DNA from: a virus
Lineage: Duplodnaviria > Heunggongvirae > Uroviricota > Caudoviricetes
Virus record (IMG/VR): IMGVR_UViG_3300021475_000005
Length of the DNA: 64,000 nucleotides
Direction: 5' to 3' (one strand)
The notes beneath the pieces were generated by a model. The model was given only the letters and a program-made list of their open reading frames with translations. It made no database searches and had not been told where the DNA came from. Below are positions 3,003-50,171 of the stretch, in pieces. Made by a program: the position numbers and the translations under genes. Position 1 is the stretch's first letter. Each line of letters starts with the position of its first letter.

Positions 3003-3281
3003 ATGCAAATAGAGTCAGCCATGCCTGCACCAACGCTCGTCACTTCCCGAAAATCCGTCGCCGATGTGAATGCTCTCCTCAATGAGGCCCGTGAAGAAGC
3101 TCTCGTTCTTGCGCGGGCTGCGCTTGAGCGGACGCAATCGCTGACCGAGGAGGTTGGCGCTCTTGCATCTCTCGATGTCCTCAACCCAGCGCTCCGGGCG
3201 GAGTTCCAGACTCTCTTCAAGGCAATGGAAGGGCAAGCTTCCCGCATCAAAAGTCGGCTGGAAAGCGCCGGGCGTCCCTGA
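3003..3281 (+). CDS. hypothetical protein
   Basis: 92-aa ORF immediately downstream. Confidence 0.4.
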   Translation: MQIESAMPAPTLVTSRKSVADVNALLNEAREEALVLARAALERTQSLTEEVGALASLDVLNPALRAEFQTLFKAMEGQASRIKSRLESAGRP

Positions 3282-36557: not shown

Positions 36558-36853
36558 TTGTAGGTGGCCGCGTCAAGGATTCCAGCATTATCGGTCGGAA
36601 TCCCTGACTCATATATTTCCTTGACATTTCCATATCAGTTTGATCTAGTTCATTGATGCCCCATGTTTCCCCAGCTTGGCTTTTCGCTTACGCAATGTTC
36701 GCGCTGATTGAAACCTGCGAGACGCAAAATCGAAAATTCTTTGATAACTGGCGGGCGCTCGCGAGGTTGCTGCCTTATTGAAGGCCTCGCAAGTTTCATC
36801 TTGCGGGGACTGACTTCTTTCGATACCTTTCCATCTTCTGTCCTGATGCCAGA

Positions 36854-37105
36854 GTGACTATGGGGACGCCTGCAAAGCGTTTCAGGCCGGTTAAAATCCG
36901 GCTCAGGACTCCATTCAAGGCCAATCCCATGAGCAAAGTAGGCAAACGCCTTATTGCCTCTTTACAGGAGGCGAAAGCCTTTGCTCAGGGCAAGCTTGCC
37001 CTTTCCGTTACAACTTTTACACCCAACAAGGATGGTTCCGTAACACGCCAGACACGGGTTGCAACCAGACAGGAGATCGAAGATGACGCAACAGACATGG
37101 GTTGA
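36854..37105 (+). CDS. hypothetical protein
   Basis: 83-aa ORF at the start of a plus-strand block. Confidence 0.3.
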   Translation: MTMGTPAKRFRPVKIRLRTPFKANPMSKVGKRLIASLQEAKAFAQGKLALSVTTFTPNKDGSVTRQTRVATRQEIEDDATDMG

Positions 37106-38347: not shown

Positions 38348-38576
38348 CATCGGCATAACGAGTCCATATATACGACATAATATCGATTCGCTCCGCTGGC
38401 TGACTGGTAAAGCAGCGATCTCTAAAATCGCCTATGTCGGTTCAAACCCGACGCGGGGCACCAATGAAAGTTGTACAATGTTTCCGGAACACGACGATTA
38501 GCTAGTCCACGTACGAGGACCGCCTGTCCTGTTGTCAAAACATTCGTAATGACAACAATCTAATAGGACAGAAAAT

Positions 38577-38990: not shown

Positions 38991-39478
38991 TGCGAACTAA
39001 GAAAACCACGCTCGAACTGTTTCACGAAAAATATATTGTCGATCCCGTAACAGGATGCTGGCAATGGCAGGCCGGAACATGCGGGCGTGGTTATTCAAAA
39101 ATAGGGTATACGCGTCCAGATGGCACGCGTAGGACAGTTGGTGCTTATAAATGGATCATGGAGCAAATTCATGGACCAATTGCTCCCGGCTATGAACCCG
39201 ATCATTTATGTCGAAACAAATTATGTGTAAATCCAGATCATATGGAGATTGTAACACGCGCCGAAAATAATAGAAGACGTGTTGCGGCTTATCGGGAGAA
39301 TGGCAAGGAAATGCATTGGAAACTGCGTGCGAGTGGGAAATGCCGAGAAGGGCATGAAATGACGCCAGAAAATACTATTGATAAGAAAGACGGTACAAGA
39401 ACATGCCGGACATGCCGCCAAAAATTCCAGAGAAAATGGCTGGCTGCCAAAAAATCAAAGCTTGACAGGGCTGCCTAG
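38990..39478 (+). CDS. HNH homing endonuclease
   Basis: Contains DHLCRNKLCVNPDHMEIVTRAENN, followed by a Cys/His cluster. Confidence 0.7.
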   Translation: MRTKKTTLELFHEKYIVDPVTGCWQWQAGTCGRGYSKIGYTRPDGTRRTVGAYKWIMEQIHGPIAPGYEPDHLCRNKLCVNPDHMEIVTRAENNRRRVAAYRENGKEMHWKLRASGKCREGHEMTPENTIDKKDGTRTCRTCRQKFQRKWLAAKKSKLDRAA

Positions 39479-39490
39479 TGTCGGTATAAG
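39462..39490 (+). promoter_or_regulatory. strong sigma70-like promoter feeding the RNA locus
   Basis: TTGACA (39462-39467), a 17-nt spacer, then TATAAG (39485-39490). It overlaps the stop codon of the HNH gene. Confidence 0.45.
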
Positions 39491-39496
39491 CGACAG

Positions 39497-39562
39497 ATGA
39501 TTGCTGTAAAAAGCGGTCGGTAAGTCGTGGCAAGACCCCGGTTCGAATCCGGGCATCTCCAC
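39497..39562 (+). ncRNA. tRNA 3'-half-like element (T-arm plus acceptor 3' strand plus ACCA) without a matching 5' acceptor strand. A tRNA remnant or tRNA-like RNA.
   Basis: cccgg-TTCGAAT-ccggg forms a perfect T-arm. It is followed by catctcc-a-cca. The complementary ggagatg is not present upstream. Confidence 0.35.
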
Positions 39563-40557
39563 CAAAAGCGCCTCGCCGCCTTTAATGGGCCGAAAGCCAC
39601 GGGTAGCAGTGTCAGGGGTGCTTCTGAGGGGGATGATTTGGGACTCGATTGTCAGGCGAAGCGATTGACGCAGCACGGACTTATCTCCGGGTAGCTTCCA
39701 CTACCGCTCGATTAAACGACAGAAATGTCAACGACAACGAGCCGATGGCTCTTCGTCTCGCGGCCTAATTAGCTGCGGAGGCCTTTCGGGTGGTGCAGGC
39801 GGCAACAGGAAGCACCACCCAACTTGATATTTTCGCCTGACCTCGACTGAGGTGTTGCAACACTGCTAAGTCGGAGCTAATGGCGGAATGTGGGGAAGCT
39901 GAGAGGTCGTGCAAATCGATCCATCCTCGATATCCGGGGACGCGTAGTGCAAGGTGGACCGAAGCGGTTATCGAAAGCCGCCCTGACAGTTGAGATCAGG
40001 CGAAAGTATCAAATTCAGCGCTTGCGCTGATCCTGTGACGGTGACCTTTTAAAACCCCGTTGGGGTATTATCTCGCAAGCGAGATCGAGAGGATCGAAAG
40101 TTACGAGCGAAGTCCATCGCTCTAGCACGGGAAAACGGACAACGAATTGTGTCGAAAGACACATAGCCACGATAAGATATGGGCAGGAAGGCCGTAACTC
40201 CTGTGTGGCGCAAACGGTAGCGAATTTGGGCACTCTGCGAGCCCTAAGCTAGATGGAAACGTCCGCCGTTTAATTGACGGCTGAGCTTAGAAGGTACGGA
40301 GTGACCCAAAAGTCATCGCCGGATAGTGCTTGTCTCTATCTTGGGTTGGTGCAGGAAGGCCGTTCCTGTATGACGCAAACGGTCGCGTTTTTGAAGCGAG
40401 GTGACTGGAGGTAGTACCAGTCTGGTTTCATAAGCCAGCAAATTAGGTCGGTGCAAGTCCGATCCTCGCAACCAAATTTGTAACACAGTTTGGAGGTCTC
40501 ATTAAGGTGAGATCGAGCTATTCGGAAGGATAGCTTCCGTGTTACAAACCTTATATC
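39563..40557 (+). ncRNA. candidate large structured noncoding RNA(s): an ORF-poor, hairpin- and GNRA-tetraloop-rich region
   Basis: Roughly 1 kb with no convincing ORF. Hairpin features: many short perfect hairpins (for example gtc-GAAA-gac, cctc-gact-gagg, ggtggtgc/gcaccacc) and a 12-nt perfect palindrome gtgttgcaacac. Repeat: a related internal copy gcaggaaggccgt..cgcaaacggt at about 40172 and 40352. The region is flanked by tRNA elements. Confidence 0.4.
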
Positions 40558-40674: not shown

Positions 40675-40752
40675 AGTCCCGTAGCTTAGTTGGTCCAAAG
40701 CCATCTGCTCATAACGGATTGATCGTGCGTTCGAATCGCACCGGGACAACCA
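40675..40752 (+). tRNA. tRNA-Met (anticodon CAU; could alternatively be lysidine-modified tRNA-Ile2)
   Basis: Manual cloverleaf: acceptor agtcccg/cgggaca, D-stem gctt/aagc, anticodon stem atctg/cggat with loop CTCATAA, variable loop tgatc, T-arm gtgcg-TTCGAAT-cgcac, discriminator A and an encoded CCA. Confidence 0.7.
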
Positions 40753-41464: not shown

Positions 41465-43336
41465 TTAGCTGTCCAGAATGCGGTCGATGTTCTCTTCCTT
41501 CATCTGAGATGACTGTGCGATACGGCAATCCAATGATCCGTCTGCGACTAGGAAGTAGCCCATAAGCGCGGCAGCAAGCTGACCAATCCTACAAATACGG
41601 TCAAATGCTTGAATCAATTTGCTTGGAACCCAATCGCCTTCCACGAATGCCACGTCTTTTGCACGTGTGAGCGTATATCCCACACCACCTGCATCAATAT
41701 TCAGAATAATAACGCGGCAGGATTCATCATCCTGAAATTTATCGACTTCGGCTTGACGTTTGTGTGGTGGCGTACCACCCCAAATTACGGCTGGATTGTA
41801 TTTCCTAAGTTCTTCGGCGAGTCCTTTAACAACATCTGTGTGATATGCGAAGACGACAAGCTTATCGCCGCCATCAAGAAAATCCTTAATCCATGGAACG
41901 GTCGCTGACATTTTGGCGAGCCCGAGATCGCGGCGCACCGTTGCGATCTGCTCGAAGATAATCTGGATTTCTGGAACTTGGAGACCTGTAATCGCAGCAA
42001 TATAATCCACATCGAGCTTACTGAAATTGGGTTTATCAGGATCACCGAGCGCAGCATCCAGTCCCATGAGGCGTGCGCGTTCTACAACCATCGTTCCGAT
42101 AGCCGCATCCCGTTCGTGTTCTTCTTCAATCCCCTTAAGGATCGTATTTTCGTAAAGACCGAGAGCTTGAGTTAGCTCGTCTTCCTTCATGACGAGAGCA
42201 CGAATATCCGGAGAATCGATGATGATGACGCGGCGCTGCTTTTCGGGAAGATCGGATTGCACCTCGGAGCGCAATCGGCGAATCATGAAAGCTTCACGTA
42301 GTTTTTGTCCGAGTTCTTCCTGATAGGATGCACCCAAGACATTCAGCGCGCCTTTCGGACCTCGACTAGAATCGAAGAATGCATCACAATAGCGATAAAC
42401 AAATCTGAGATAGTCTTTACCAAGTCCTTCGGGATCAAACGCTTGGACCATGGGCCAAAGTTCGATAGGCCGGTTCATGATCGGGGTGCCGGTGAGGAAG
42501 AGACGACGCAGTGCGGCAATAGGTTCGTAGCGAACGCGTTTCTTGAACGTGCGCCCATTGATCTCCGACTCTTCAAGGCGAGTACCGCCGAGTACGTGGA
42601 GCGTACGACTGGAGTCTATGGTTTTTAGAGCATGCGCTTCGTCACAAATAAGCAAGTCCCACGTATGACCTTTGATTTTATCTGCGAAGCGTTCAAGAAT
42701 ATGATAATTAATAACAACGACATCGGTATTAGGCCAGAAATCAGGCTCTTCAATCCACTTATACTTATTCTTTCCGTTTTTGTACGTCCCGACTCTAATA
42801 AGTTCTTTTCGTTTTGCCTCAGCAATTCCGACACTGACGTTACGTGTCTTCCAAAGATCAAATTCACGTTTCCAGTGAATCTTCAATCCTGCCGGAGAGA
42901 CGATCAAAACTTGCCTGATCTTCTCATCGGCATTGAACAACAAAATGCCTTGTAGTGTCTTGCCTAAACCGGGCTGATCGGCGATCAGCGCATCTGTCCG
43001 TGGCAGGCAATATTCGACGCCCGCATCCTGATAACGAAACGGTTCTAGCTGTTTACCGGTGACGGGGTGGATTTTATTCGGAACCGGACTTCTAAAGTCC
43101 GTAGTATCCGCATACGACATTTTCGCGGAGAGTTCGGCTTGTGCAGCTTTCTCTTCAACGTGTCGTAATGCACGATCAGTCCATGGGACTTTGACTTGCT
43201 CGGCTAGTACCTGATCGGTGGTGATCCAGCATTTACGGACGGCAGATCGCGTGAATCCAGCTTTCTTCCAGATTTCACGTTCTTCGTAAGTGCCGATGCC
43301 GCAGAAATAGCCGTCTTTATAATCGAGATGAGCCAT
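41465..43336 (-). CDS. SNF2-family DNA helicase/translocase
   Basis: DEAH box (LLICDEAHALK), DQPGLGKT, and a helicase-C region (FLTGTPIMNRPIELW ... DAGGVGYTLTRA). Confidence 0.75.
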   Translation of the reverse strand: MAHLDYKDGYFCGIGTYEEREIWKKAGFTRSAVRKCWITTDQVLAEQVKVPWTDRALRHVEEKAAQAELSAKMSYADTTDFRSPVPNKIHPVTGKQLEPFRYQDAGVEYCLPRTDALIADQPGLGKTLQGILLFNADEKIRQVLIVSPAGLKIHWKREFDLWKTRNVSVGIAEAKRKELIRVGTYKNGKNKYKWIEEPDFWPNTDVVVINYHILERFADKIKGHTWDLLICDEAHALKTIDSSRTLHVLGGTRLEESEINGRTFKKRVRYEPIAALRRLFLTGTPIMNRPIELWPMVQAFDPEGLGKDYLRFVYRYCDAFFDSSRGPKGALNVLGASYQEELGQKLREAFMIRRLRSEVQSDLPEKQRRVIIIDSPDIRALVMKEDELTQALGLYENTILKGIEEEHERDAAIGTMVVERARLMGLDAALGDPDKPNFSKLDVDYIAAITGLQVPEIQIIFEQIATVRRDLGLAKMSATVPWIKDFLDGGDKLVVFAYHTDVVKGLAEELRKYNPAVIWGGTPPHKRQAEVDKFQDDESCRVIILNIDAGGVGYTLTRAKDVAFVEGDWVPSKLIQAFDRICRIGQLAAALMGYFLVADGSLDCRIAQSSQMKEENIDRILDS

Positions 43337-43403: not shown

Positions 43404-43922
43404 CTAAAGGCTCATAGCCAAGGGATTGTCCATGTGACTTTTCCCCTTTTCTAATTTCTGCGCAAACAGTCGCAAGGCTGTGAGCCGGGATGTAAATTCC
43501 TCCTCTGTCAAAACAGTATGTTCTGGATCGTTCGAACCGATAGAGTGGCGCAAGATGCTGTCTCTACTATCCACCAACGCTTTCCTAAAACGCGTAACCT
43601 GATGGAAAAGTGCAGTGTAAGCTCGGTTGAGAAGAAGCTGATACTCTTGCGATTCGCGGGGCATTTCTACCCCATTCCACCAGACGACTTGCAGCCCCTT
43701 CCAGACAAGGTTCATTTGCCTACCGCGCTTTTTGGCAATTATCCCTTCGAGCCCGCAGACTTTTTTCTGGACCTCTGGATCGGAAAATTTGAAAGCTTGG
43801 ATCAATCCTTCCATGCTCGCGCAGAAGACATTATCGAACACAAAATAATGTGGAGCGAAGTTTGATAGCTCGCAACTTGGATAGGGATGATCGGAATGGA
43901 TATCGAGAATTCTAGGCATCAA
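43404..43922 (-). CDS. NADAR (YbiA-like) domain protein, copy 2
   Basis: YPSCELSNFAPHYFVFDNVFCASMEGLIQAFKF matches the NADAR N-terminal signature and is distinct from copy 1. Confidence 0.6.
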   Translation of the reverse strand: MMPRILDIHSDHPYPSCELSNFAPHYFVFDNVFCASMEGLIQAFKFSDPEVQKKVCGLEGIIAKKRGRQMNLVWKGLQVVWWNGVEMPRESQEYQLLLNRAYTALFHQVTRFRKALVDSRDSILRHSIGSNDPEHTVLTEEEFTSRLTALRLFAQKLEKGKSHMDNPLAMSL

Positions 43923-44128
43923 AATTTTTCAACACTGTAAAGTTCGCCGGGAAGTTTCCTCGCCATCTGTTTGACAAATGCGTGGCCCCACCATTCAGGG
44001 CAAAGCGGGACGACGATCTGACCAGAAGAATGAACGACCATGTAGCCGCCCTGATCGAAATCATATTCAATCTGCTTCTCGATTTCGTCATGCAAAAGTC
44101 TTGCGGTTTGAAGGCTCATCCGCGCCAT
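43919..44128 (-). CDS. hypothetical protein (start uncertain)
   Basis: Only the C-terminal about 70-85 aa of the 154-aa ORF look protein-like. The upstream part overlaps a better membrane-protein ORF. Confidence 0.3.
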   Translation of the reverse strand: MARMSLQTARLLHDEIEKQIEYDFDQGGYMVVHSSGQIVVPLCPEWWGHAFVKQMARKLPGELYSVEKF

Positions 44129-44358
44129 CTCCAGATGCCGATCAAGTTCAGAGCCGTGAAAAAGACCCATTGGGCTAGGACGGCTTTGTCCTTGGTCTTT
44201 ACCCCAACTCCGGCCCATAACAGCGATCCGGCAAGCATGACTCCGAATCCCCACGGCGTCAAATCGCCTATACCGGGAACGGTAAGGTGGAAAGCAACCA
44301 TCGCGGCTCCCGCCATGCTGAACGTAGCACCGGGACGCTTCAGGTAGCGCAGGCGCAT
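44116..44358 (-). CDS. small membrane protein
   Basis: 80 aa with two transmembrane segments (AGAAMVAFHLTVPGI; VLAQWVFFTALNLIGIW). Confidence 0.4.
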   Translation of the reverse strand: MRLRYLKRPGATFSMAGAAMVAFHLTVPGIGDLTPWGFGVMLAGSLLWAGVGVKTKDKAVLAQWVFFTALNLIGIWRWRG

Positions 44359-45326
44359 TAAAGCTCCGTTGAATCCTCGTCACGCTGAGAGAAGTAGACC
44401 CTCAATTCATCTCGCAACTGGGGCTTGTTCCCAGTAAGCTTTAGAAGCCCTTGGGCGTCATAGCAGACATCCCGGTCGGGATCGTACTCGTTCTCGGAAA
44501 GAATATGCCAGCGGCTGCTATAGCGTCTCTTGGCGTAATTTCCGTGCCAGAAATGAACCGCGACTCCGGGAACCAAGCCGACATCCCCACAGATATGTCG
44601 AGAAGCGCGTTCGCGCCATGCGGATACCATGGCGGCGTAGCGACATCCACCCCGCTCAGCGGTCGGGTCCGGCAGTCCAAGCAGTCCATAAGCCATATGG
44701 TGATCACCGGAGCCAAGAATACAGAGATCGAGCAAGCCTCCCAGATCGTCATAGGCCTCGCGCCGGTAAGCCCATGCCAAGCCGGGATAGCCATGCTTCT
44801 TTAGCCAATCCAGATTCGAGTCGTCATAGATGCTGCCATTCGGGCCGGGCTGCGTATCCCAGAGATGATCTTGATAACGTTTCATGAGCGACGGCGCGAC
44901 GCCGAGATGCTCGTGCTTCGGCCCTAGAGAAATCATCTCAGATGAGATTTGGACGACCTTGTAAAGCTGTAGAGCATGCAGGGTCTCCATAACCCAGTCG
45001 GGATGGGTCATATGCGAATCGCCGTCGATCCACGCCGCATAATTCCAGTCACCGGCATGCAGGAGGCCAAGACGAATTAGATTCTCTTTCTGCCAGAGGA
45101 CCGTTTTGGAGCGAACTTGTACCAGCTTGATGCCGGGTTGGTCCGCGATCTCGAATGGACGCTCGCCATAGGCACATTCGACAATCACGACGCGGGCACG
45201 ACTTGCGATCAGATGATTGATGAGATTTCGAAAGTGGGCGACGCGTGTATTCCAACGAAGGGGATTATTCAATACAGCTACTACAGTCAACATTTCCGGA
45301 CGCATCACATTCCCTTTGGTCAGCAC
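44358..45326 (-). CDS. putative glycosyltransferase (GT-A-like, DxD motif)
   Basis: A beta-strand start (MLTVVAVLNNP) and a DGD motif (AWIDGDSHM). Confidence 0.35.
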   Translation of the reverse strand: MLTKGNVMRPEMLTVVAVLNNPLRWNTRVAHFRNLINHLIASRARVVIVECAYGERPFEIADQPGIKLVQVRSKTVLWQKENLIRLGLLHAGDWNYAAWIDGDSHMTHPDWVMETLHALQLYKVVQISSEMISLGPKHEHLGVAPSLMKRYQDHLWDTQPGPNGSIYDDSNLDWLKKHGYPGLAWAYRREAYDDLGGLLDLCILGSGDHHMAYGLLGLPDPTAERGGCRYAAMVSAWRERASRHICGDVGLVPGVAVHFWHGNYAKRRYSSRWHILSENEYDPDRDVCYDAQGLLKLTGNKPQLRDELRVYFSQRDEDSTEL

Positions 45327-45423
45327 GAATCAACTCGCATATCCTTTCTAATACAATGCGTTGGGAAGTAAAGTTACATGTTTGTGAATTCGACAGTATC
45401 TGTCGGAAAACTTGACAGGCTGA

Positions 45424-45672
45424 TCAGAAGGAAGCTTCCGGTTCTGGATATTCGCCATCGGGATCGACGACCGGCTCTTCTTCGGACTCCATGTGAGCCA
45501 TGACGGCTGCTTCCGGCGAGCGCATGATGTAATCGGGGTTCGCCTGTGCAGTCTTTTCTCTCTTGAGGAGGGATTCGGCGACAGCAATGGCTAGTCCGCT
45601 ATGAACGCCATAGTTATTGCGAAGAGCAGTATGCGCGGCAACAATCCATGCGGCATCGTGCTGAGTCGTCAT
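45424..45672 (-). CDS. hypothetical protein
   Basis: 82-aa ORF with an acidic C-terminus. Confidence 0.35.
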   Translation of the reverse strand: MTTQHDAAWIVAAHTALRNNYGVHSGLAIAVAESLLKREKTAQANPDYIMRSPEAAVMAHMESEEEPVVDPDGEYPEPEASF

Positions 45673-45681
45673 CTGATTTTC

Positions 45682-45957
45682 CTAAACAAGTTTGATGAAT
45701 TTCAGAGGCCAATACGTACGCGTATCGCCATGGCTATTGAGGAATTCCGTACTGCGGTGCTTATAAATCATCAGACAAGCAACAAGGCCGTCTTTGGGAT
45801 TGCATATGACGCCCGTTATACGACCTCTACGCCCTTTAAATTTGCCTTTCAGCGCAATAGCTTCCCGGTGCACAAGCATAGTCGCGGCATTGCGCGTACA
45901 ATCGATAATTTCACGAGACAGCAATTCCAGCTTCTTTTCGAAGGTGAAGTGCGCCAT
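45682..45957 (-). CDS. hypothetical protein
   Basis: 91-aa ORF. Confidence 0.35.
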   Translation of the reverse strand: MAHFTFEKKLELLSREIIDCTRNAATMLVHREAIALKGKFKGRRGRITGVICNPKDGLVACLMIYKHRSTEFLNSHGDTRTYWPLKFIKLV

Positions 45958-46119
45958 GCTATTGATCCAGCTTGGCGAGTGCTGTCCCTACAAGAAAAGC
46001 ACAAATAGGAGACAACGCAATCCAGAAGAGAACCCAGATCATTTTGCCTCCTACCCGCCTGCTATGGAACTCCTATTTATGCAGCCTCTCGGGAAAAGGC
46101 AAGAGGCATCCCCAGAAAA

Positions 46120-46790
46120 AAATGCGCCGGACAGGCCATCCATGGGTTTCACGATCACTCGGGTCCGGCGCTCCCGTGAGCACGGGAATTCTGTCTCCTT
46201 GATTAGATGCGACGAGAGCGACAGTCCTCATTAGGGTCTCGTGGGTGGTAAGGTCGCTCTCATCACAAATTATGCGTCGAACATATCACATAAGGGTTTC
46301 AAATTTACGTAGGTCCGACGCTCTCGCTTTCACGAGAATTTCTTTCTCCATTAGTGATGCGACGAGAGCGACATTTCTCAACAGGGTCTCAATGAACTAC
46401 TGGTCGCTCTCATCACAAATTCTGCGCCAGACAAATTAGCAAAGGGTTTCATGGTGTGATCGGTCCGACGCTTCCACCTTCGTGGAATTTCTTTCTCCTC
46501 TATTAGACGTGACGAGAGCGACAGTCCGACGTAGGGTTTCAGATTACAACAGGTCTCTCTCGTCACAAATTGCGCGTCCAACAACTCGTCGTAGGGTTTC
46601 ACAGTTCAATAGGTTGGACGCTCCGCTCGCGCGGAAACTATGCAGCCTCCAATTCAGGTACGACGGTAGCGACACTCTTGTGCAGGGGTTCATGATTGTC
46701 AGGATCGCTCCCGTCGCAAGCTCTGGCGTCAGGCAATTGATCTGTGGGTTTCACCGAGCGGTTGGCCTGACGCCACGCCGACCAAAGATC
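46120..46790. repeat. tandem array of about 9 hairpin units (roughly 75 bp each). Each has a conserved central RGGGTYTCA core flanked by a 9-13-bp inverted repeat.
   Basis: Cores lie at about 46143, 46234, 46303, 46388, 46453, 46535, 46606, 46693 and 46758. Two alternating arm types occur: gacgagagcgac/gtcgctctcRtc and gcgYc..gac/gtc..Rcgc. Flanking spacers such as caaatt and gaatttctttctcc also recur. Confidence 0.8.
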
Positions 46791-47612
46791 GGCGAGAAAG
46801 ATTTTCTCCATATAGCGCATAGCGCGTTTATGCGCCACAACGAGAAGATTCGTTCGTGTAAGTTCGTAGACTTTCCGCGCATCATAGATTGCACGATAGT
46901 GTCCGGCTTCCGACAACACTTCACCTGTTTCTTCATCGACACGTGCGCTCTGGGCTTTAAACAAAGCTTGTCCGATATTCCAACTAACCGAGCGACGGGT
47001 GGGATTGTAACCGTGTGCGATCCATGTCGCGCTTGTCGCGCCTTCACCGGGCGCACCTTGACGCTTGCCGTCGATCACAGCGAGCCCGAGGCGTTTCCAG
47101 AGTTTTGAGACAGTCGTGTACTTCGTGAGATCACCACACTCGCCGACAATCTGTGCAAGACCGAAGGAACCAAACCCACGAATATCTTTTCCCCACTCAC
47201 GCCAGACTGGCAAAGTCTCCGCAAGCTTTGTCATGGCAAATTCTTTGTCGTCTCGCAGATCGATCATCGGCTGCACCGCATTCGCATTCGTGATGGCTAC
47301 TCGATGCGTCGGGTGACTAGGATCGACGAGTGCATCTTTGATAACTTTTTTCGCTTGGGCATAAGCCTTCTTGAGCGCCGGTTTATCATTGGGATCGGAT
47401 TTGAGAACGTGAAAGACAATGAGAGATTCACAAGCACGTTCTAACCTAGCCTGCTGCTTTAACGCAAAACGTGCTTCACGATGATAGCCGATAATTTCGC
47501 GAATAAGGTCTTCCTGATTCGTCGGAACTTTGATGTCGGAAGACTTTCGGCGTTTTGATTTAACTTTTGTTTCAGGCGTTTCCATTTGATGTCTTTCCGA
47601 GAACGAGTTCAT
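46638..47612 (-). CDS. protein with an IS110 C-terminal (Transposase_20, HhH-like) motif. No DEDD N-terminal domain is recognisable.
   Basis: IRGFGSFGLAQIVGECGDLTKYTTVSKLWKRLGLAV parallels the IPGIGxxxAxxLxAExGDxxRFxxxxxLxAYAGLxP block of IS110-family transposases. The last about 50 codons run into the repeat array. Confidence 0.35.
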   Translation of the reverse strand: MNSFSERHQMETPETKVKSKRRKSSDIKVPTNQEDLIREIIGYHREARFALKQQARLERACESLIVFHVLKSDPNDKPALKKAYAQAKKVIKDALVDPSHPTHRVAITNANAVQPMIDLRDDKEFAMTKLAETLPVWREWGKDIRGFGSFGLAQIVGECGDLTKYTTVSKLWKRLGLAVIDGKRQGAPGEGATSATWIAHGYNPTRRSVSWNIGQALFKAQSARVDEETGEVLSEAGHYRAIYDARKVYELTRTNLLVVAHKRAMRYMEKIFLADLWSAWRQANRSVKPTDQLPDARACDGSDPDNHEPLHKSVATVVPELEAA

Positions 47613-48294
47613 CCTTTACTTCATTCATCGCACATTCGATCTCGTCATTGCTGAAGAGGGTGCCAAGTTCTGCAAAGGGATCGGCGACGCGCGAATAACG
47701 CCGAGAAAGGTTTTCACACAAAGCACCTTCAAATTTTCCGCGTGTCGCGAGCGTTTTAAGTTCGTGCCAGCGCACCTTCCCGATAGGACGGCCATCGAGC
47801 ATCTTATAGGATTCGAGAATTCTCCCGGCACTTGCATCTGCTGCTTCGAAACGGGCAGCGCGGCGGTAGTGTTCGGAGACGCGGATAGGTTTCGGCTGAG
47901 AAGGCGCACATTGGATACGGGGTTCAATCTTGCGCAGGCTCTCCCTCTCAGCCAAGGAGTCGGAGACAGCCGCCGTTTGGAGTTCATATGGTTTTTGGTC
48001 TCCGTCGCCATCACTGGCGAAAATTTGGGAGGCAGCGCCATTCTGGGTTTCAGACGATGTCTGGCCTCCCTCGATCTTGCGACCGAATCTCATGTCTTCA
48101 GCAACTTCGCGTAGGTAATCCAATTCAAGTTCGATTAACAAACTCTCGTCCTCCATAATCATTCTATGGAATTCGCGACGGGCAGCAAACGCGTTTTTGG
48201 ATACCTTACTCAATGCATTCGAAGCAGCCATGTAAAGAGAAGCCGGGGCATCCATTCCGATCTGCTGAAGTTCGGGCTTTATCGAGCGAGACAT
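47572..48294 (-). CDS. hypothetical protein
   Basis: Taken from the internal Met (MSRSIKPELQQIG), which avoids overlapping the upstream gene. Confidence 0.35.
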   Translation of the reverse strand: MSRSIKPELQQIGMDAPASLYMAASNALSKVSKNAFAARREFHRMIMEDESLLIELELDYLREVAEDMRFGRKIEGGQTSSETQNGAASQIFASDGDGDQKPYELQTAAVSDSLAERESLRKIEPRIQCAPSQPKPIRVSEHYRRAARFEAADASAGRILESYKMLDGRPIGKVRWHELKTLATRGKFEGALCENLSRRYSRVADPFAELGTLFSNDEIECAMNEVKDELVLGKTSNGNA

Positions 48295-48304
48295 TTTAGA
48301 TTCC

Positions 48305-49294
48305 TTATTTGTTTTGGATGCCAAGAAAGGGAACAGCCTCTCGGGAAAAGGCAAGAGCCTCTTCGGCGATCTCGGCAGTTTTGGCCTCAACGGTCTCACG
48401 CAGTACGTCGTCGAATAGCGGCGTATTGGTAACCTTCTTTTTCGGGAGAGCTTTTTTGCCGATCAACCGCGTCATCTGCTTGTCTTGCAGGAAATGTTCC
48501 AAAGCGGCAGCGGTCTTGGCATAGCGAATGTTTTGCACTTCAGCGCCGCCCGACGATCCGTATGCCTTGTCGAGGTAACGCCGGAGAGCCAATTCTGGCG
48601 AACCATCGGCACAATCTGCACCTGTAGCGATACGTCGTCCGAATTCGGTGACCTTCTTCGAATCTTCGCCTGCAATTATCGCTTCGGCCAATGCACAGGT
48701 GACCGGAGCGGGGAGGCGTGACATGTAAGAGACCTCGGCAAGCGTCGTCAGGGCCGGTGAGAGATACTCATACCATTCCAGCAATTGCTGCGGGGTTGCC
48801 TTATGGGCCTTTGGATTGCTGATGGGCTTATCAGTAGCACCATAGAGACCATGGAAGCGACAGACCGCCATCGTTGTCCCGGTCGCTTCCGGACGGTCAA
48901 AAACAAACTTCATCAAATCTGATGCTGTCCGCTTCAATCCCGTATCGATGGCAGCGCCTGCACGTGGATCGGCACCAGTCACGACAAGAAGCGGGAAATT
49001 CGGGCAGAAGCCGACCTTGCGAAACGCGTGCAGACGATGCTGCCCATCCCCGAGAATGCCACCGCGCAGAACAGTAATTCCTTGCGCGGTCGCATGATAT
49101 TCGCCCTGTGCGATCATGCTGCTGAGCCATTCCACGTGGGAGGGACGCATGGGACGGTTGTTGACGTTCAGGCTGAGAAGATACTCAACGTTCGCTGCGT
49201 CCGCCGCCACAAAAAATGTTTGGAGCGCGTCTAGCTTAATTGCACCAAGCAATTCGACAAAACTCTTTACGGGATGATGTGCTGACTGTGTCAT
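48305..49294 (-). CDS. ParB/Srx-fold (ParB N-terminal nuclease-like) domain protein
   Basis: GGILGDGQHRLHAFRKVG matches the ParB/sulfiredoxin DGxHR core. Confidence 0.5.
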   Translation of the reverse strand: MTQSAHHPVKSFVELLGAIKLDALQTFFVAADAANVEYLLSLNVNNRPMRPSHVEWLSSMIAQGEYHATAQGITVLRGGILGDGQHRLHAFRKVGFCPNFPLLVVTGADPRAGAAIDTGLKRTASDLMKFVFDRPEATGTTMAVCRFHGLYGATDKPISNPKAHKATPQQLLEWYEYLSPALTTLAEVSYMSRLPAPVTCALAEAIIAGEDSKKVTEFGRRIATGADCADGSPELALRRYLDKAYGSSGGAEVQNIRYAKTAAALEHFLQDKQMTRLIGKKALPKKKVTNTPLFDDVLRETVEAKTAEIAEEALAFSREAVPFLGIQNK

Positions 49295-49304
49295 TTGGAT
49301 TCTC

Positions 49305-50171
49305 CTATTTGTGTTGGATGTCAAGGAAGGGAAGCGTACCGCCCGGGATCATCGTCTGAGGCAATTTGCCGTCCCATTTCTCAGCCGCAACAAGGGTGGG
49401 AAGCTCAGGATTCTCTCGCAGCGCATCGCCGCGTGCCTTGATCGCTCCAGCTTCGGCGTTGCCCATCACTTCAGTCTGATGAGCTTTGGCATCGGCTGCG
49501 GCACGAACTTCATAGGCAGCAGCATCGGCATCGATGATGCGCTTGGCTTTTTGAGCCTCGGCTTGCTGCTGACGAACCGTAGCTTCCATACGCGCTTCGA
49601 CCGCTTTTTCATAAGTATCGGAAAACTCGATGTCCTCGATCTGTACGGAATCAACGATGATCGGCGTCCCTTTAACAGTAGCCTGCAAGGTTCTCGTAAC
49701 ATCGGCATTGAACTTCGCGCGCTTTTGAATAGCAGAGGCGGCTTCATATTGCCCGAAAACGTTTTTCAAGACCTCGTACACACGCGGTTCGAGCAGCTTT
49801 GCCACTCCAGTATCGATATCGCCGTAGCTTGAATAAAGCCCCTCAACGTCGATCACGTGATAGTTTACAGAAAGACGAATTTTGGCTGGTTGCTGATCGT
49901 AGCTGTAGGCGGCAATCGGATTATCACTGCTGCCGTATACAATCTTCTGAGGCTGAACCGAAATGTCGTTCGCGCCTTGAAAGATTGGCATCTTGAAGTG
50001 AAGTCCGGGACCATAGTTGCCGACGACGGAACCGTTCGTGGTCAGAACCGCACGATAGCCTTGGGAGACTGTAAAGAAAGAAGAAAAGGCGACGATGAGC
50101 GCAAACAAGCCTGCGACGGCGGTTACGGCGTACGCAATGATGCGCTGCGGTGTAAAATAAGACGGCTGCAT
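49305..50171 (-). CDS. SPFH / band-7 (prohibitin/HflC-like) membrane protein
   Basis: An N-terminal transmembrane segment, an SPFH core (YRAVLTTNG ... NYHVIDVEGLY ... LEPRVYEVLKNVFGQYEA) and an Ala/Gln-rich coiled coil. Confidence 0.7.
   Translation of the reverse strand: MQPSYFTPQRIIAYAVTAVAGLFALIVAFSSFFTVSQGYRAVLTTNGSVVGNYGPGLHFKMPIFQGANDISVQPQKIVYGSSDNPIAAYSYDQQPAKIRLSVNYHVIDVEGLYSSYGDIDTGVAKLLEPRVYEVLKNVFGQYEAASAIQKRAKFNADVTRTLQATVKGTPIIVDSVQIEDIEFSDTYEKAVEARMEATVRQQQAEAQKAKRIIDADAAAYEVRAAADAKAHQTEVMGNAEAGAIKARGDALRENPELPTLVAAEKWDGKLPQTMIPGGTLPFLDIQHK

Follow-up and report, generated by a model that had tools for sequence, protein, structure and literature searches.

TIGR-Tas systems, the closest described relatives of the hairpin array that we analyse here in IMG/VR virus record IMGVR_UViG_3300021475_000005 (Caudoviricetes; the 64,000-nucleotide stretch studied is called the window), combine a Nop-domain Tas protein with an array of dual-spacer guides, in which a box C (CCA) precedes and a box D (UG) follows each spacer (Faure et al., Science 2025, PMC12045711). 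The same boxes are found in the edge and loop repeats, matching the symmetric Tas dimer (PMC12045711), and the spacers that they flank are 8-12 nt long (PMC12045711; bioRxiv 10.64898/2026.09.09.750476). In stem-loop arrays, which are tied to TasA, a protein composed of a coiled coil and an RNA-binding domain, variable palindromes replace the edge repeats (PMC12045711). A catalogue of such arrays lists 2,559, most of their loops being 9 nt long (Xu et al., bioRxiv 10.64898/2026.09.09.750476), and their units can lie within disordered coding segments of the tas gene, whether at its 5' end, at its 3' end or inside it (bioRxiv 10.64898/2026.09.09.750476). TIGR arrays are reported to end with a rho-independent terminator (PMC12045711). 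TasA proteins were found to bind DNA under RNA guidance, and both TasA and dead TasR to act as RNA-guided transcriptional repressors (bioRxiv 10.64898/2026.09.09.750476), and a stem-loop TasA ternary complex described in another preprint shows both spacer-DNA heteroduplexes. The described examples of stem-loop TasA are PlTasA (from a Peromyscus leucopus gut contig), BlTasA and MbTasA (PMC12045711; bioRxiv 10.64898/2026.09.09.750476; bioRxiv 10.64898/2026.08.11.744272).

We identify the array in the window as a stem-loop TIGR array with its TasA in a large phage, and put the probability of this at roughly 0.88. Systems of this kind were first described in 2025, in work published in 2025-2026, and the locus is a new example rather than a new system. 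The identification rests on the anatomy of the units, their strandedness, the covariation of their stems, the association with one protein across the family, and the fold and family of that protein. The locus combines a Tas protein containing Nop and coiled-coil parts with palindromic stems, a loop repeat of about 9 nt and two box C/D-flanked spacers per unit. Its nine array units and two further units all lie on the tasA strand, and the last of the array, U1, has a GC-rich stem followed by AUUUUUUU.

Nine inverted-repeat units occupy positions 46124-46775, as a preliminary description made from the letters alone had proposed, and their arms are indeed of two alternating types. Type A arms of 9-11 bp (GCGYCRRAC / GTYYGRCGC) form U1, U3, U5, U7 and U9, while type B arms of 14-15 bp (TGTGAYGAGAGCGAC / GTCGCTCTCRTCRCA) form U2, U4, U6 and U8. 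Tandem Repeats Finder, one of the checks suggested in that description, returns a period of 150 nt, corresponding to a two-hairpin module. The interior between the arms, estimated there at about 35 nt, measures exactly 30 nt in every unit. The linker strings caaatt and aatttctttctcc are real: short linkers (caaatt on the plus strand) join a type B unit to the next type A unit on the plus strand, and long linkers of 36-38 nt contain aatttctttctcc together with a small hairpin that keeps its pairing while the sequence of its stem varies from copy to copy. Also real is the reported overlap with the last 50 or so codons of the upstream open reading frame (ORF), since U9 and U8 encode the last 45 codons of tasA. 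The nine units are not the complete set, however: two more, U10 and U11, lie inside the next upstream ORF, and the informative strand is the minus strand. Read on that strand, each unit runs stem - CCN - 9-nt variable - UGARACCCN - 9-nt variable - UG - stem; at the junctions the 5' arm ends in C and is followed by C-N, and a U precedes the 3' arm, which starts with G. All 11 units fit stem-CCN-N9-UGNNNNCCN-N9-UG-stem with the 30-nt interior, the loop box D of U2 being deviant (CG). The window loop, UGAAACCC(N), matches in sequence the loop repeat UGAAACCCA of TaTasR, for which the synthetic tigRNA1 is AGCCA-UGCAAGCCC-UGAAACCCA-UUGCCUUAG-UGCG (Table S3, PMC12045711). Within the array, type A arms are 76-83% identical to one another and type B arms 90-95%, and the spacers are 25-29% identical, which equals background.

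The pairing of the stems is informative as to strand. Stems are 7-15 bp long, with 110 of 112 positions paired; on the minus strand these comprise 101 Watson-Crick and nine G-U pairs, with no A-C and two other combinations, and the same nine G-U pairs become A-C mismatches if read on the plus strand. Folding of the 700-nt region likewise favours minus-strand RNA (-271 kcal/mol, z -5.4) over plus-strand RNA (-249 kcal/mol, z -3.5), a U-run follows U1 on the minus strand, and the flanking genes are encoded there. Taken together, these features mean that the array is best read as minus-strand RNA and not as duplex DNA. From its sequence, U1 with its U-run looks like an intrinsic terminator, and the U-run is the likely 3' end of the array transcript; a simple terminator scan missed it because the U1 loop is 30 nt long.

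The strandedness extends to searches of the whole window. The motif CC-N10-TG-RRR-CCC-N10-TG, allowing at most one mismatch, occurs 10 times in the 64 kb, always on the minus strand, compared with a mean of 1.44 in shuffled windows and no shuffle out of 100 reaching 10. A motif match at 47908-47937 was considered as a degenerate unit and rejected, having a poor stem and being absent from the covariance-model matches. A covariance model built from 60 units of the window and related loci yields 11 minus-strand matches (31-47 bits, E 2e-7 to 4e-4), namely the nine array units and, inside the next upstream ORF, 48022-48075 and 47956-48009; 10 of the 11 (including 48022-48075) were in the training set and match by construction, leaving 47956-48009 as the only independent detection in the window. 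The best plus-strand matches score 15 bits (E ~0.8). Rfam searched over 44000-49000 at E up to 10 gave only chance small nucleolar RNA matches outside the array, ARAGORN made no tRNA-like call within it, and blastn of 45000-49400 against 50,697 phage records found no match.

The 324-residue ORF into which the array extends is TasA: a Nop domain and a coiled coil with no nuclease. In an AlphaFold2 model (mean predicted local distance difference test, pLDDT, 85; predicted template modelling score 0.78), residues 1-30 are disordered, residues ~33-131 form a coiled coil or long helical hairpin, residues ~135-283 form a Nop-type RNA-binding domain, and the remainder is a disordered tail, in which pLDDT is mostly under 60 (from residue 285) and drops under 50 over residues 307-324. 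Homologs do not conserve this tail, whose length among them is anywhere from 0 to over 100 residues. A PDB search with a profile of 42 homologs matches TaTasR (9MTY, the cryo-electron microscopy structure of TIGR-TasR, PMC12045711) at E 1e-19 and TasH at E 2e-4; the TaTasR alignment starts after the RuvC domain (9MTY residues 139-296), and the matches to TasR and TasH are both confined to the Nop and coiled-coil parts. Foldseek against the PDB places TasR and TasH structures in the top 11 positions (E from 5e-7), followed by ISCro4 and IS621. The NCBIfam model NF052498 ("TIGR-Tas system RNA-guided endonuclease") matches residues 110-281 (E 3e-22, 79.6 bits), and hhalign to the experimentally studied stem-loop protein PlTasA gives 98.2% probability (E 3e-14). 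Compared by eye, Nop-domain sequences in Data S1 of PMC12045711 with the clade signature WKRLGLAVID...WRRA are very similar to the homologs P0112 and P0115, which match the window protein at E ~1e-36. A Pfam scan of TasA returned no domain at E up to 0.1, and neither Pfam nor the AlphaFold2 model revealed an HNH or RuvC/DEDD nuclease domain; the protein is classed as TasA on account of this absence.

A scan of IMG/VR with the single protein found no match, and relatives were recovered with an alignment as the query, giving a set of 83 viral loci (640 kb) that keep the hairpins. In these loci we counted 175 copies of the bare motif on the tas strand and 15 on the opposite one; at least seven of eight flanking pairs are formed by 117 of the 175 tas-strand motifs as against 0 of the 15 opposite-strand motifs. 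The consensus of 147 units has CCA at both box C positions (A in 116/147 and 112/147) and UG at the two box D positions, with spacers and loop all 9 nt long. Over 12 stem pairs in 60 units, 83% of positions are paired compared with 55% after shuffling, the covariation score is 0.70 versus 0.21 (a value reached by 0 of 500 shuffles), and sliding the partner column by 1-3 positions reduces pairing to 36-50%. This covariation is partly circular, as most of the units were picked for having a stem, but the strand contrast and the compensations between orthologous units are not. The check on related loci that the preliminary description had asked for thus gives the pattern of an RNA: the arms change in sequence and covary.

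Individual relatives illustrate this. In locus L001, TasA is 91% identical over its full length, the layout is the same minus one two-unit module, the upstream gene likewise contains two units, and one type B unit has fully compensated arms (GAAGACGAAAAC / GTCTTCGTCTTC). Two more distant loci, L002 and L003 (TasA 56% identical), have nine units that all fall within coding sequence. The upstream gene hosts four of them; tasA has another four in its disordered N-terminus and a single one, the ortholog of U9, at its 3' end. In L002 the U9 ortholog keeps its pairing by compensatory changes, from GGCGTCAGGC/GCCTGACGCC to GGCGGGAGGC/GTCTCCCGCC, which alter the encoded residues non-conservatively (Q to E, PD to SP). 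The tasA gene itself is intact, and the combination of 96.7% protein identity to L001 (residues 1-281) with 73% identity at fourfold-degenerate sites indicates purifying selection. The features of the locus are collected in Table 1.

Table 1. Features of the TIGR-TasA locus and its upstream genes in the window (unit sequences given as minus-strand RNA).
Feature	Position	Strand	Description
U-run AUUUUUUU	46116..46123	-	directly after U1; same arrangement in L001
U1, type A, last unit	46124..46171	-	9-bp GC-rich stem; covariance model
Long linker 4	46172..46207	-	GGAGACAGAAUU, then mini-hairpin CCCGUG CUC ACGGG
U2, type B	46208..46267	-	15-bp stem including 2 G-U pairs; loop CGAGACCCU, loop box D CG, which may weaken the unit
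U3, type A	46274..46321	-	9-bp stem including 1 G-U pair; covariance model
Long linker 3	46322..46357	-	GGAGAAAGAAAUU, then mini-hairpin UCUCG UGAAAG CGAGA
U4, type B	46358..46417	-	15-bp stem including 2 G-U pairs; loop UGAGACCCU; covariance model
U5, type A	46424..46471	-	9-bp stem including 2 G-U pairs; covariance model
Long linker 2	46472..46508	-	GGAGAAAGAAAUU, then mini-hairpin UCCAC GAAG GUGGA
U6, type B	46509..46566	-	14-bp stem; covariance model
U7, type A	46574..46621	-	9-bp stem; covariance model
Long linker 1	46622..46659	-	tasA stop (UAG) and mini-hairpin CCGC/GCGG abutting U7; identical in L001
U8, type B'	46660..46717	-	14-bp stem, one mismatch; loop UGAACCCCU; inside tasA tail; 31.2 bits
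U9, type A'	46724..46775	-	11-bp perfect stem; CCA-ACCGCTCGG-UGAAACCCA-CAGATCAAT-UG; inside tasA 3' end, 5' arm overlapping the conserved ...AWR codons; covariance model, 47.5 bits
tasA, 324 residues	46638..47612	-	stop TAG; profile search, Foldseek, NCBIfam, hhalign, AlphaFold2
Partner gene up240, 240 residues	47572..48294	-	from ATG at 48294; end overlaps tasA start
U11	47961..48004	-	7-bp stem CGGAGAC/GUCUCCG; CCA-AAAACCATA-UGAACUCCA-AACGGCGGC-UG; partner-gene linker, residues 97-112; detected by covariance model only; ortholog L001 1442-1471
U10	48027..48070	-	7-bp perfect stem GGGAGGC/GCCUCCC; CCA-GACATCGTC-UGAAACCCA-GAATGGCGC-UG; partner-gene disordered linker, residues 75-90
DGQHRL-motif ORF, 339 residues	48305-49324	-	two genes upstream of tasA; 1.5 kb from array

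By analogy with the described systems, we infer a mechanism covering transcription, processing, 2:1 assembly, dual-strand pairing and repression. The minus strand would be transcribed, probably as one operon transcript running from the partner gene through tasA to the array and ending at the U-run after U1. Such a transcript would carry 11 hairpins, the interior of each presenting box C (CCN), the 9-nt spacer A, the loop repeat, the 9-nt spacer B and box D (UG) in that order, with the loop repeat UG-ARAC-CCN holding a box D and a second box C. Cutting of the precursor in the linkers would release single stem-loop tigRNAs of ~45-60 nt. A TasA dimer joined by its coiled coils may then bind one tigRNA, one Nop domain contacting the box C/D at the stem junction and the other that in the loop. 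This complex would open an 18-bp DNA site so that spacers A and B pair with opposite strands, and the predicted top strand of the target has spacer B first and then the reverse complement of spacer A. Because TasA lacks a nuclease domain, the expected outcome is sequence-specific DNA binding, by way of repression or occlusion, and not cleavage.

Comparison with described systems places the locus among stem-loop TIGR/TasA systems. It shares with them tandem hairpins on the tas strand, the loop of ~9 nt, the nuclease-less Nop and coiled-coil protein, the phage context, and units that may sit inside disordered coding segments. It differs in that its stems form two alternating conserved classes within a 150-nt module and do not diverge freely, in its covarying linker mini-hairpin, its mostly CCY box C and the absence of a conserved CUU, and in having two units in the coding sequence of a second conserved gene and not of tas. 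The dual-repeat systems TaTasR (9MTY) and SpTasH (9W04) provide the best PDB matches and share the identical loop repeat UGAAACCCA, 9-nt spacers, UG and CC(A) boxes and a terminator after the array. Unlike these, the window has stems of 7-15 bp and linkers in place of short edge repeats, encodes neither RuvC nor HNH, and is expected to produce a processed RNA of ~45-60 nt as opposed to 36 nt. Dual-repeat Tas proteins have a Y/H processing loop, which has been reported absent from stem-loop clades (bioRxiv 10.64898/2026.09.09.750476).

More distant parallels exist. The box C/D small nucleolar ribonucleoproteins of archaea and eukaryotes (Nop5, Nop56/58) also use a Nop domain to bind box C/D and have two guide segments per RNA, with a symmetric dimer on one RNA (PMC12045711). 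Their guides pair with rRNA, whereas those of the locus would pair with DNA; k-turns, L7Ae and fibrillarin are lacking here, and the boxes are of 2-3 nt. CRISPR arrays similarly alternate tandem constant elements with variable guides and show fast guide turnover between close relatives; they are transcribed as a precursor that is cut into units, as is predicted here. In contrast, the guides of the TIGR array are split into 9+9 nt that would read both strands, its constant elements are hairpin stems, and there is no protospacer adjacent motif, no Cas1/Cas2 and no known adaptation gene.

Several observations weigh against the reading as a stem-loop TIGR system. Box C is mostly CCY in the array units, where the family has CCA, and the loop box D of U2 is CG instead of UG; units with such deviant boxes may bind poorly. 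The stems are unusually conserved within the array and fall into two alternating classes, whereas the literature describes stem divergence within arrays. No recurrent CUU was found at the stem base of the window units, the junctions being ACC/GCC...UG and the linkers AAUUUG or CUAAU...GGAGAAAGAAAUU; CUU is the processing motif at this position in the stem-loop clades studied, although it is clade-specific and not defining (bioRxiv 10.64898/2026.09.09.750476). The NF052498 score falls below the equivalog cut-off of 100, as is expected for a nuclease-less relative. Finally, the 11 spacer pairs have no site with two or fewer mismatches in the 64-kb window, and exact 18-mers of four units match IMG/VR 3, 0, 0 and 1 times, in unrelated genes and at about the level of chance.

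For these searches we deduced the geometry (spacer B, then spacer A reverse-complemented) from the published tigRNA1 paired with its synthetic target, and checked it on that pair; it predicts, for example, the 18-bp targets CAGATCAATCCGAGCGGT for U9 and GAATGGCGCGACGATGTC for U10. An earlier search of the window with 10+10-nt spacers in both orientations likewise gave no site at up to two mismatches. Six window sites at three mismatches, with ~1.1 expected, were rejected as targets: all require a gap of 1-2 nt, and one reflects self-similarity of the array. Among all related loci, the 147 units match as often as controls with shuffled partners. Reports from the field describe the same difficulty, and for TIGR systems it is usual that no target is found. 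One unit of locus L061 (~4556, at the tasA 3' end) has a spacer pair that matches, in canonical geometry and with 1-2 mismatches, DNA coding for WKRMGLA, the most conserved TasA motif, in the tasA genes of other phages (L058 4142, L031 4511, L029 4520 and L049 4379). This match may be due to chance, as the overall counts are at control level; targeting of rival tasA genes and autoregulation are alternative readings.

Two of the alternatives to a TIGR array concern the neighbouring protein and the DNA itself. The preliminary description called the neighbour recombinase-like, and the units could on that basis be IS110/IS1111-type bridge (seek) RNAs guiding it to recombine DNA, for instance in phage mobility or integration. 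The protein does share its Nop/Tnp RNA-binding domain with IS621 (8WT6) and ISCro4 (9T56), which also dimerise through a coiled coil and have their RNA encoded beside the gene; IS1111 elements carry theirs 3' of the gene. Each loop of the array has two guide segments around a conserved core, in the manner of bridge-RNA loops that read both DNA strands, and TasA matches PHROG 4285 ("transposase") at E 1e-13. The shared domain is as far as the resemblance to a recombinase goes, however. TasA has no RuvC/DEDD domain, its N-terminus being a disordered segment and coiled coil. ISCro4 and IS621 are weak matches in the fold search (E 0.02-0.2), and TasR and TasH match better by orders of magnitude in both sequence and fold. 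There are 11 independent single-loop units and not one two-loop RNA. Neither terminal repeats nor other transposon or element boundaries were seen, and the homologs sit in conserved phage operons. We regard bridge RNAs as highly improbable. An element acting as DNA, which the same description had listed as origin iterons or cruciforms, a centromere for the ParB-like protein or a pac site, carries about as little weight. Dense inverted repeats in a mostly non-coding stretch would suit it, as would the gene with a DGQHR (ParB/Srx-type) motif 1.5 kb away and the position of the L002 locus next to terminase genes. Against this, the arm mismatches are G-U on one strand only (9 versus 0), an asymmetry that has no meaning for duplex DNA. 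The arms change in sequence while pairing is kept, where protein-binding DNA sites would conserve sequence, and the 175 to 15 strand bias accompanies units scattered through coding regions of two genes in relatives. The ParB-like gene is missing from all 83 loci and its fold could not be confirmed, and the window has no terminase gene near the array. The fourth option in that description, a cluster of guide-like small structured RNAs serving the neighbouring protein, was essentially right, given the published tigRNA anatomy of the units and the TasA neighbour.

The remaining alternatives accept the RNA or deny it altogether. A TIGR-derived array might no longer guide DNA binding, serving instead as a decoy or sponge for a rival Tas, or in cis-regulation of tasA and the partner gene. 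The CCY boxes, the variant box D, the uniform stems and the lack of a target would be in keeping with this, and the mini-hairpins with their T-rich tail resemble terminators on the plus strand. Nonetheless, tasA is intact and under purifying selection, and every unit keeps the box C/D positions and the 9+9+9 spacing while the spacers are free to vary, which is the pattern of functional guides; the failure to find targets is usual for TIGR systems. We consider a non-guiding array improbable, if somewhat less so than bridge RNAs or a DNA element. That the repeats are protein-coding, as a repeat protein or as mini-ORFs starting from the xTG-AAA-CCC core, is scarcely credible. The core NTG AAA CCC could supply a start codon and Lys-Pro, long linkers contain GGAGA-type strings, ORFs of 49-74 residues (translation table 11) cross the array, and U8 and U9 lie inside the tasA ORF. 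But no frame is kept across the units, whose spacing is 60 and 90 nt, and the ORFs are short and occur on both strands. A GTG follows a GGAG string in one linker only. The TasA tails that host units are unconserved in length and predicted disordered, and compensatory changes preserve the stem at the expense of the encoded residues, as seen in the U9 ortholog.

Beyond the identification as a TIGR-TasA locus, a conserved partner gene emerges. In 79 of the 83 loci, counted with an iterated hidden Markov model from which TasA ORFs were excluded, a homolog of this gene immediately precedes tasA on the same strand; the other four loci have no upstream DNA. Reciprocally, a TasA homolog (hhalign E ~1e-62) comes after each of P0123 and P0127, two proteins found with the partner profile. 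An identical partner protein is carried on a 206,491-bp contig. The gene encodes ~170-240 residues and often overlaps the start of tasA (L001 1145-1867, L002 5289-6014, L089 3001-3516 and L091 3001-3618). The protein is all-helical, with conserved N- and C-terminal parts that are nearly identical in L001 and a variable middle (residues ~72-128) predicted to be disordered; this linker hosts U10 and U11 here and tigRNA units in several phages. Searches of Pfam, PHROG, NCBIfam and the PDB, the last by both sequence and fold, gave no match to the protein, and its AlphaFold2 model, with a pLDDT of 66 (under 50 at residues 77-107), is of too low confidence for interpretation. The two main TIGR papers that were searched do not mention such a partner, naming only tasParB as an occasional one.

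Comparison of 43404-50171 with L001 268-4802 bears on the history of the cassette. Identity at fourfold-degenerate sites is 73% for tasA, as given above, and 82% for the partner gene, and in the flanks it falls to 49% (Band_7), 42% (orf91), 34% (orf82) and 30% (gp30.3). On this sequence evidence the TIGR cassette looks to have been shared more recently, by recombination or transfer, than the surrounding phage genome. Spacers behave differently from the rest of the cassette. Five units occupy orthologous positions in the window (46124-46775 and 47961-48070) and in L001 (1376-3143); in these, spacers are identical at 34/90 positions (38%, with a background of 25%), as against 136/150 (91%) for stems and 39/40 for loops. 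By Fisher's test, spacers differ from tasA fourfold-degenerate sites with p = 2e-7 and from stems with p = 4e-18, and the Jukes-Cantor distances of 1.33 for spacers and 0.33 for tasA fourfold-degenerate sites correspond to ~4 times faster spacer turnover. Recombination was ruled out as the cause of this pattern, as conserved and diverged segments alternate every 9-15 nt, which leaves strong diversifying selection on spacers or their replacement by some mechanism.

It is conceivable that spacers are actively replaced or hyper-diversified within preserved units in an adaptation-like process, possibly involving the partner protein, as opposed to drifting slowly by point mutation, and that the two-stem module is the unit of array growth. 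We regard this proposal as speculative and on balance unlikely. Were it true, the system of this TasA clade would not be a single-protein one, and the partner linker would double as a guide-RNA host. Two alternating conserved stem types are also seen in L058 (3151-3414, with a 117-nt period) and in L081 (1250-1399), and the alternation in L058 indicates that array growth by duplication of two-hairpin modules recurs. Alternating stem types may keep a 3' arm from mispairing with an identical 5' arm in the unit that follows.

The main value of the analysis lies in correct annotation: a probable RNA-guided DNA-binding module with 11 guides occupies a locus with no Rfam or Pfam match and a single weak PHROG match labelled "transposase". 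The locus should also be useful for two open questions in the field, the natural targets of these systems and the origin of their spacers. In particular, the comparison with L001, in which stems, loops and linkers are conserved and every spacer differs, offers a clean and quantifiable signal of spacer turnover. This measured turnover, the conserved partner gene and growth by two-stem modules are the parts most worth pursuing.

Some smaller features of the array deserve mention. The mini-hairpins of the long linkers have stems of 4-6 bp and differ in sequence from those of L001 as well, again with pairing kept. Each abuts the next type A stem and is preceded by the purine-rich GGAGAAAGAAAUU, and on the plus strand they score as terminator-like. 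Possible roles are as processing signals or in blocking antisense transcription. Degenerate loop boxes occur in some type B units, with CGAGACCC in U2 and GAGGCCC and UAGACCC in L001 (~2722-2780 and 3023-3080), and guides of this sort may be decaying or differently recognised.

The gene that the preliminary description assigned a ParB fold is present about where it was placed, and carries a DGQHR motif; its ParB fold could not be confirmed, with no Pfam or PDB match by phmmer, by PDB profile or by Pfam on 41 homologs. The DGQHRL motif is invariant across the large family of the 339-residue protein, which has 7,061 homologs at E up to 1e-3. A tblastn search found the gene in 0 of the 83 related loci. 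It is inserted here between Band_7 and the partner gene, which are direct neighbours in L001. A tasParB-tasA operon, with a ParB-like gene conserved across loci, is known (Faure et al., fig. S14, PMC12045711); such an operon was not found here, and the gene does not behave as part of the TIGR system.

Elsewhere in the window, ARAGORN calls on the plus strand a tRNA-CUA (38390-38463; labelled Pyl, in effect an amber suppressor), a transfer-messenger RNA-like gene (39472-39931), a tRNA-Cys (36840-36913) and a tRNA-Met (40675-40752). Recoding of TAG, considered in view of the tRNA-CUA and the TAG stop of tasA, is unsupported: the stops of 55 long ORFs are TAA in 25 cases, TGA in 18 and TAG in 12. 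The SNF2-family helicase of L001 (4840-7755) has 971 residues and a faint LAGLIDADG match between its helicase halves, and the copy in the window (41465-43336, minus strand) has 623 residues, which suggests, from sequence, that the L001 helicase carries an intein or homing-endonuclease insertion.

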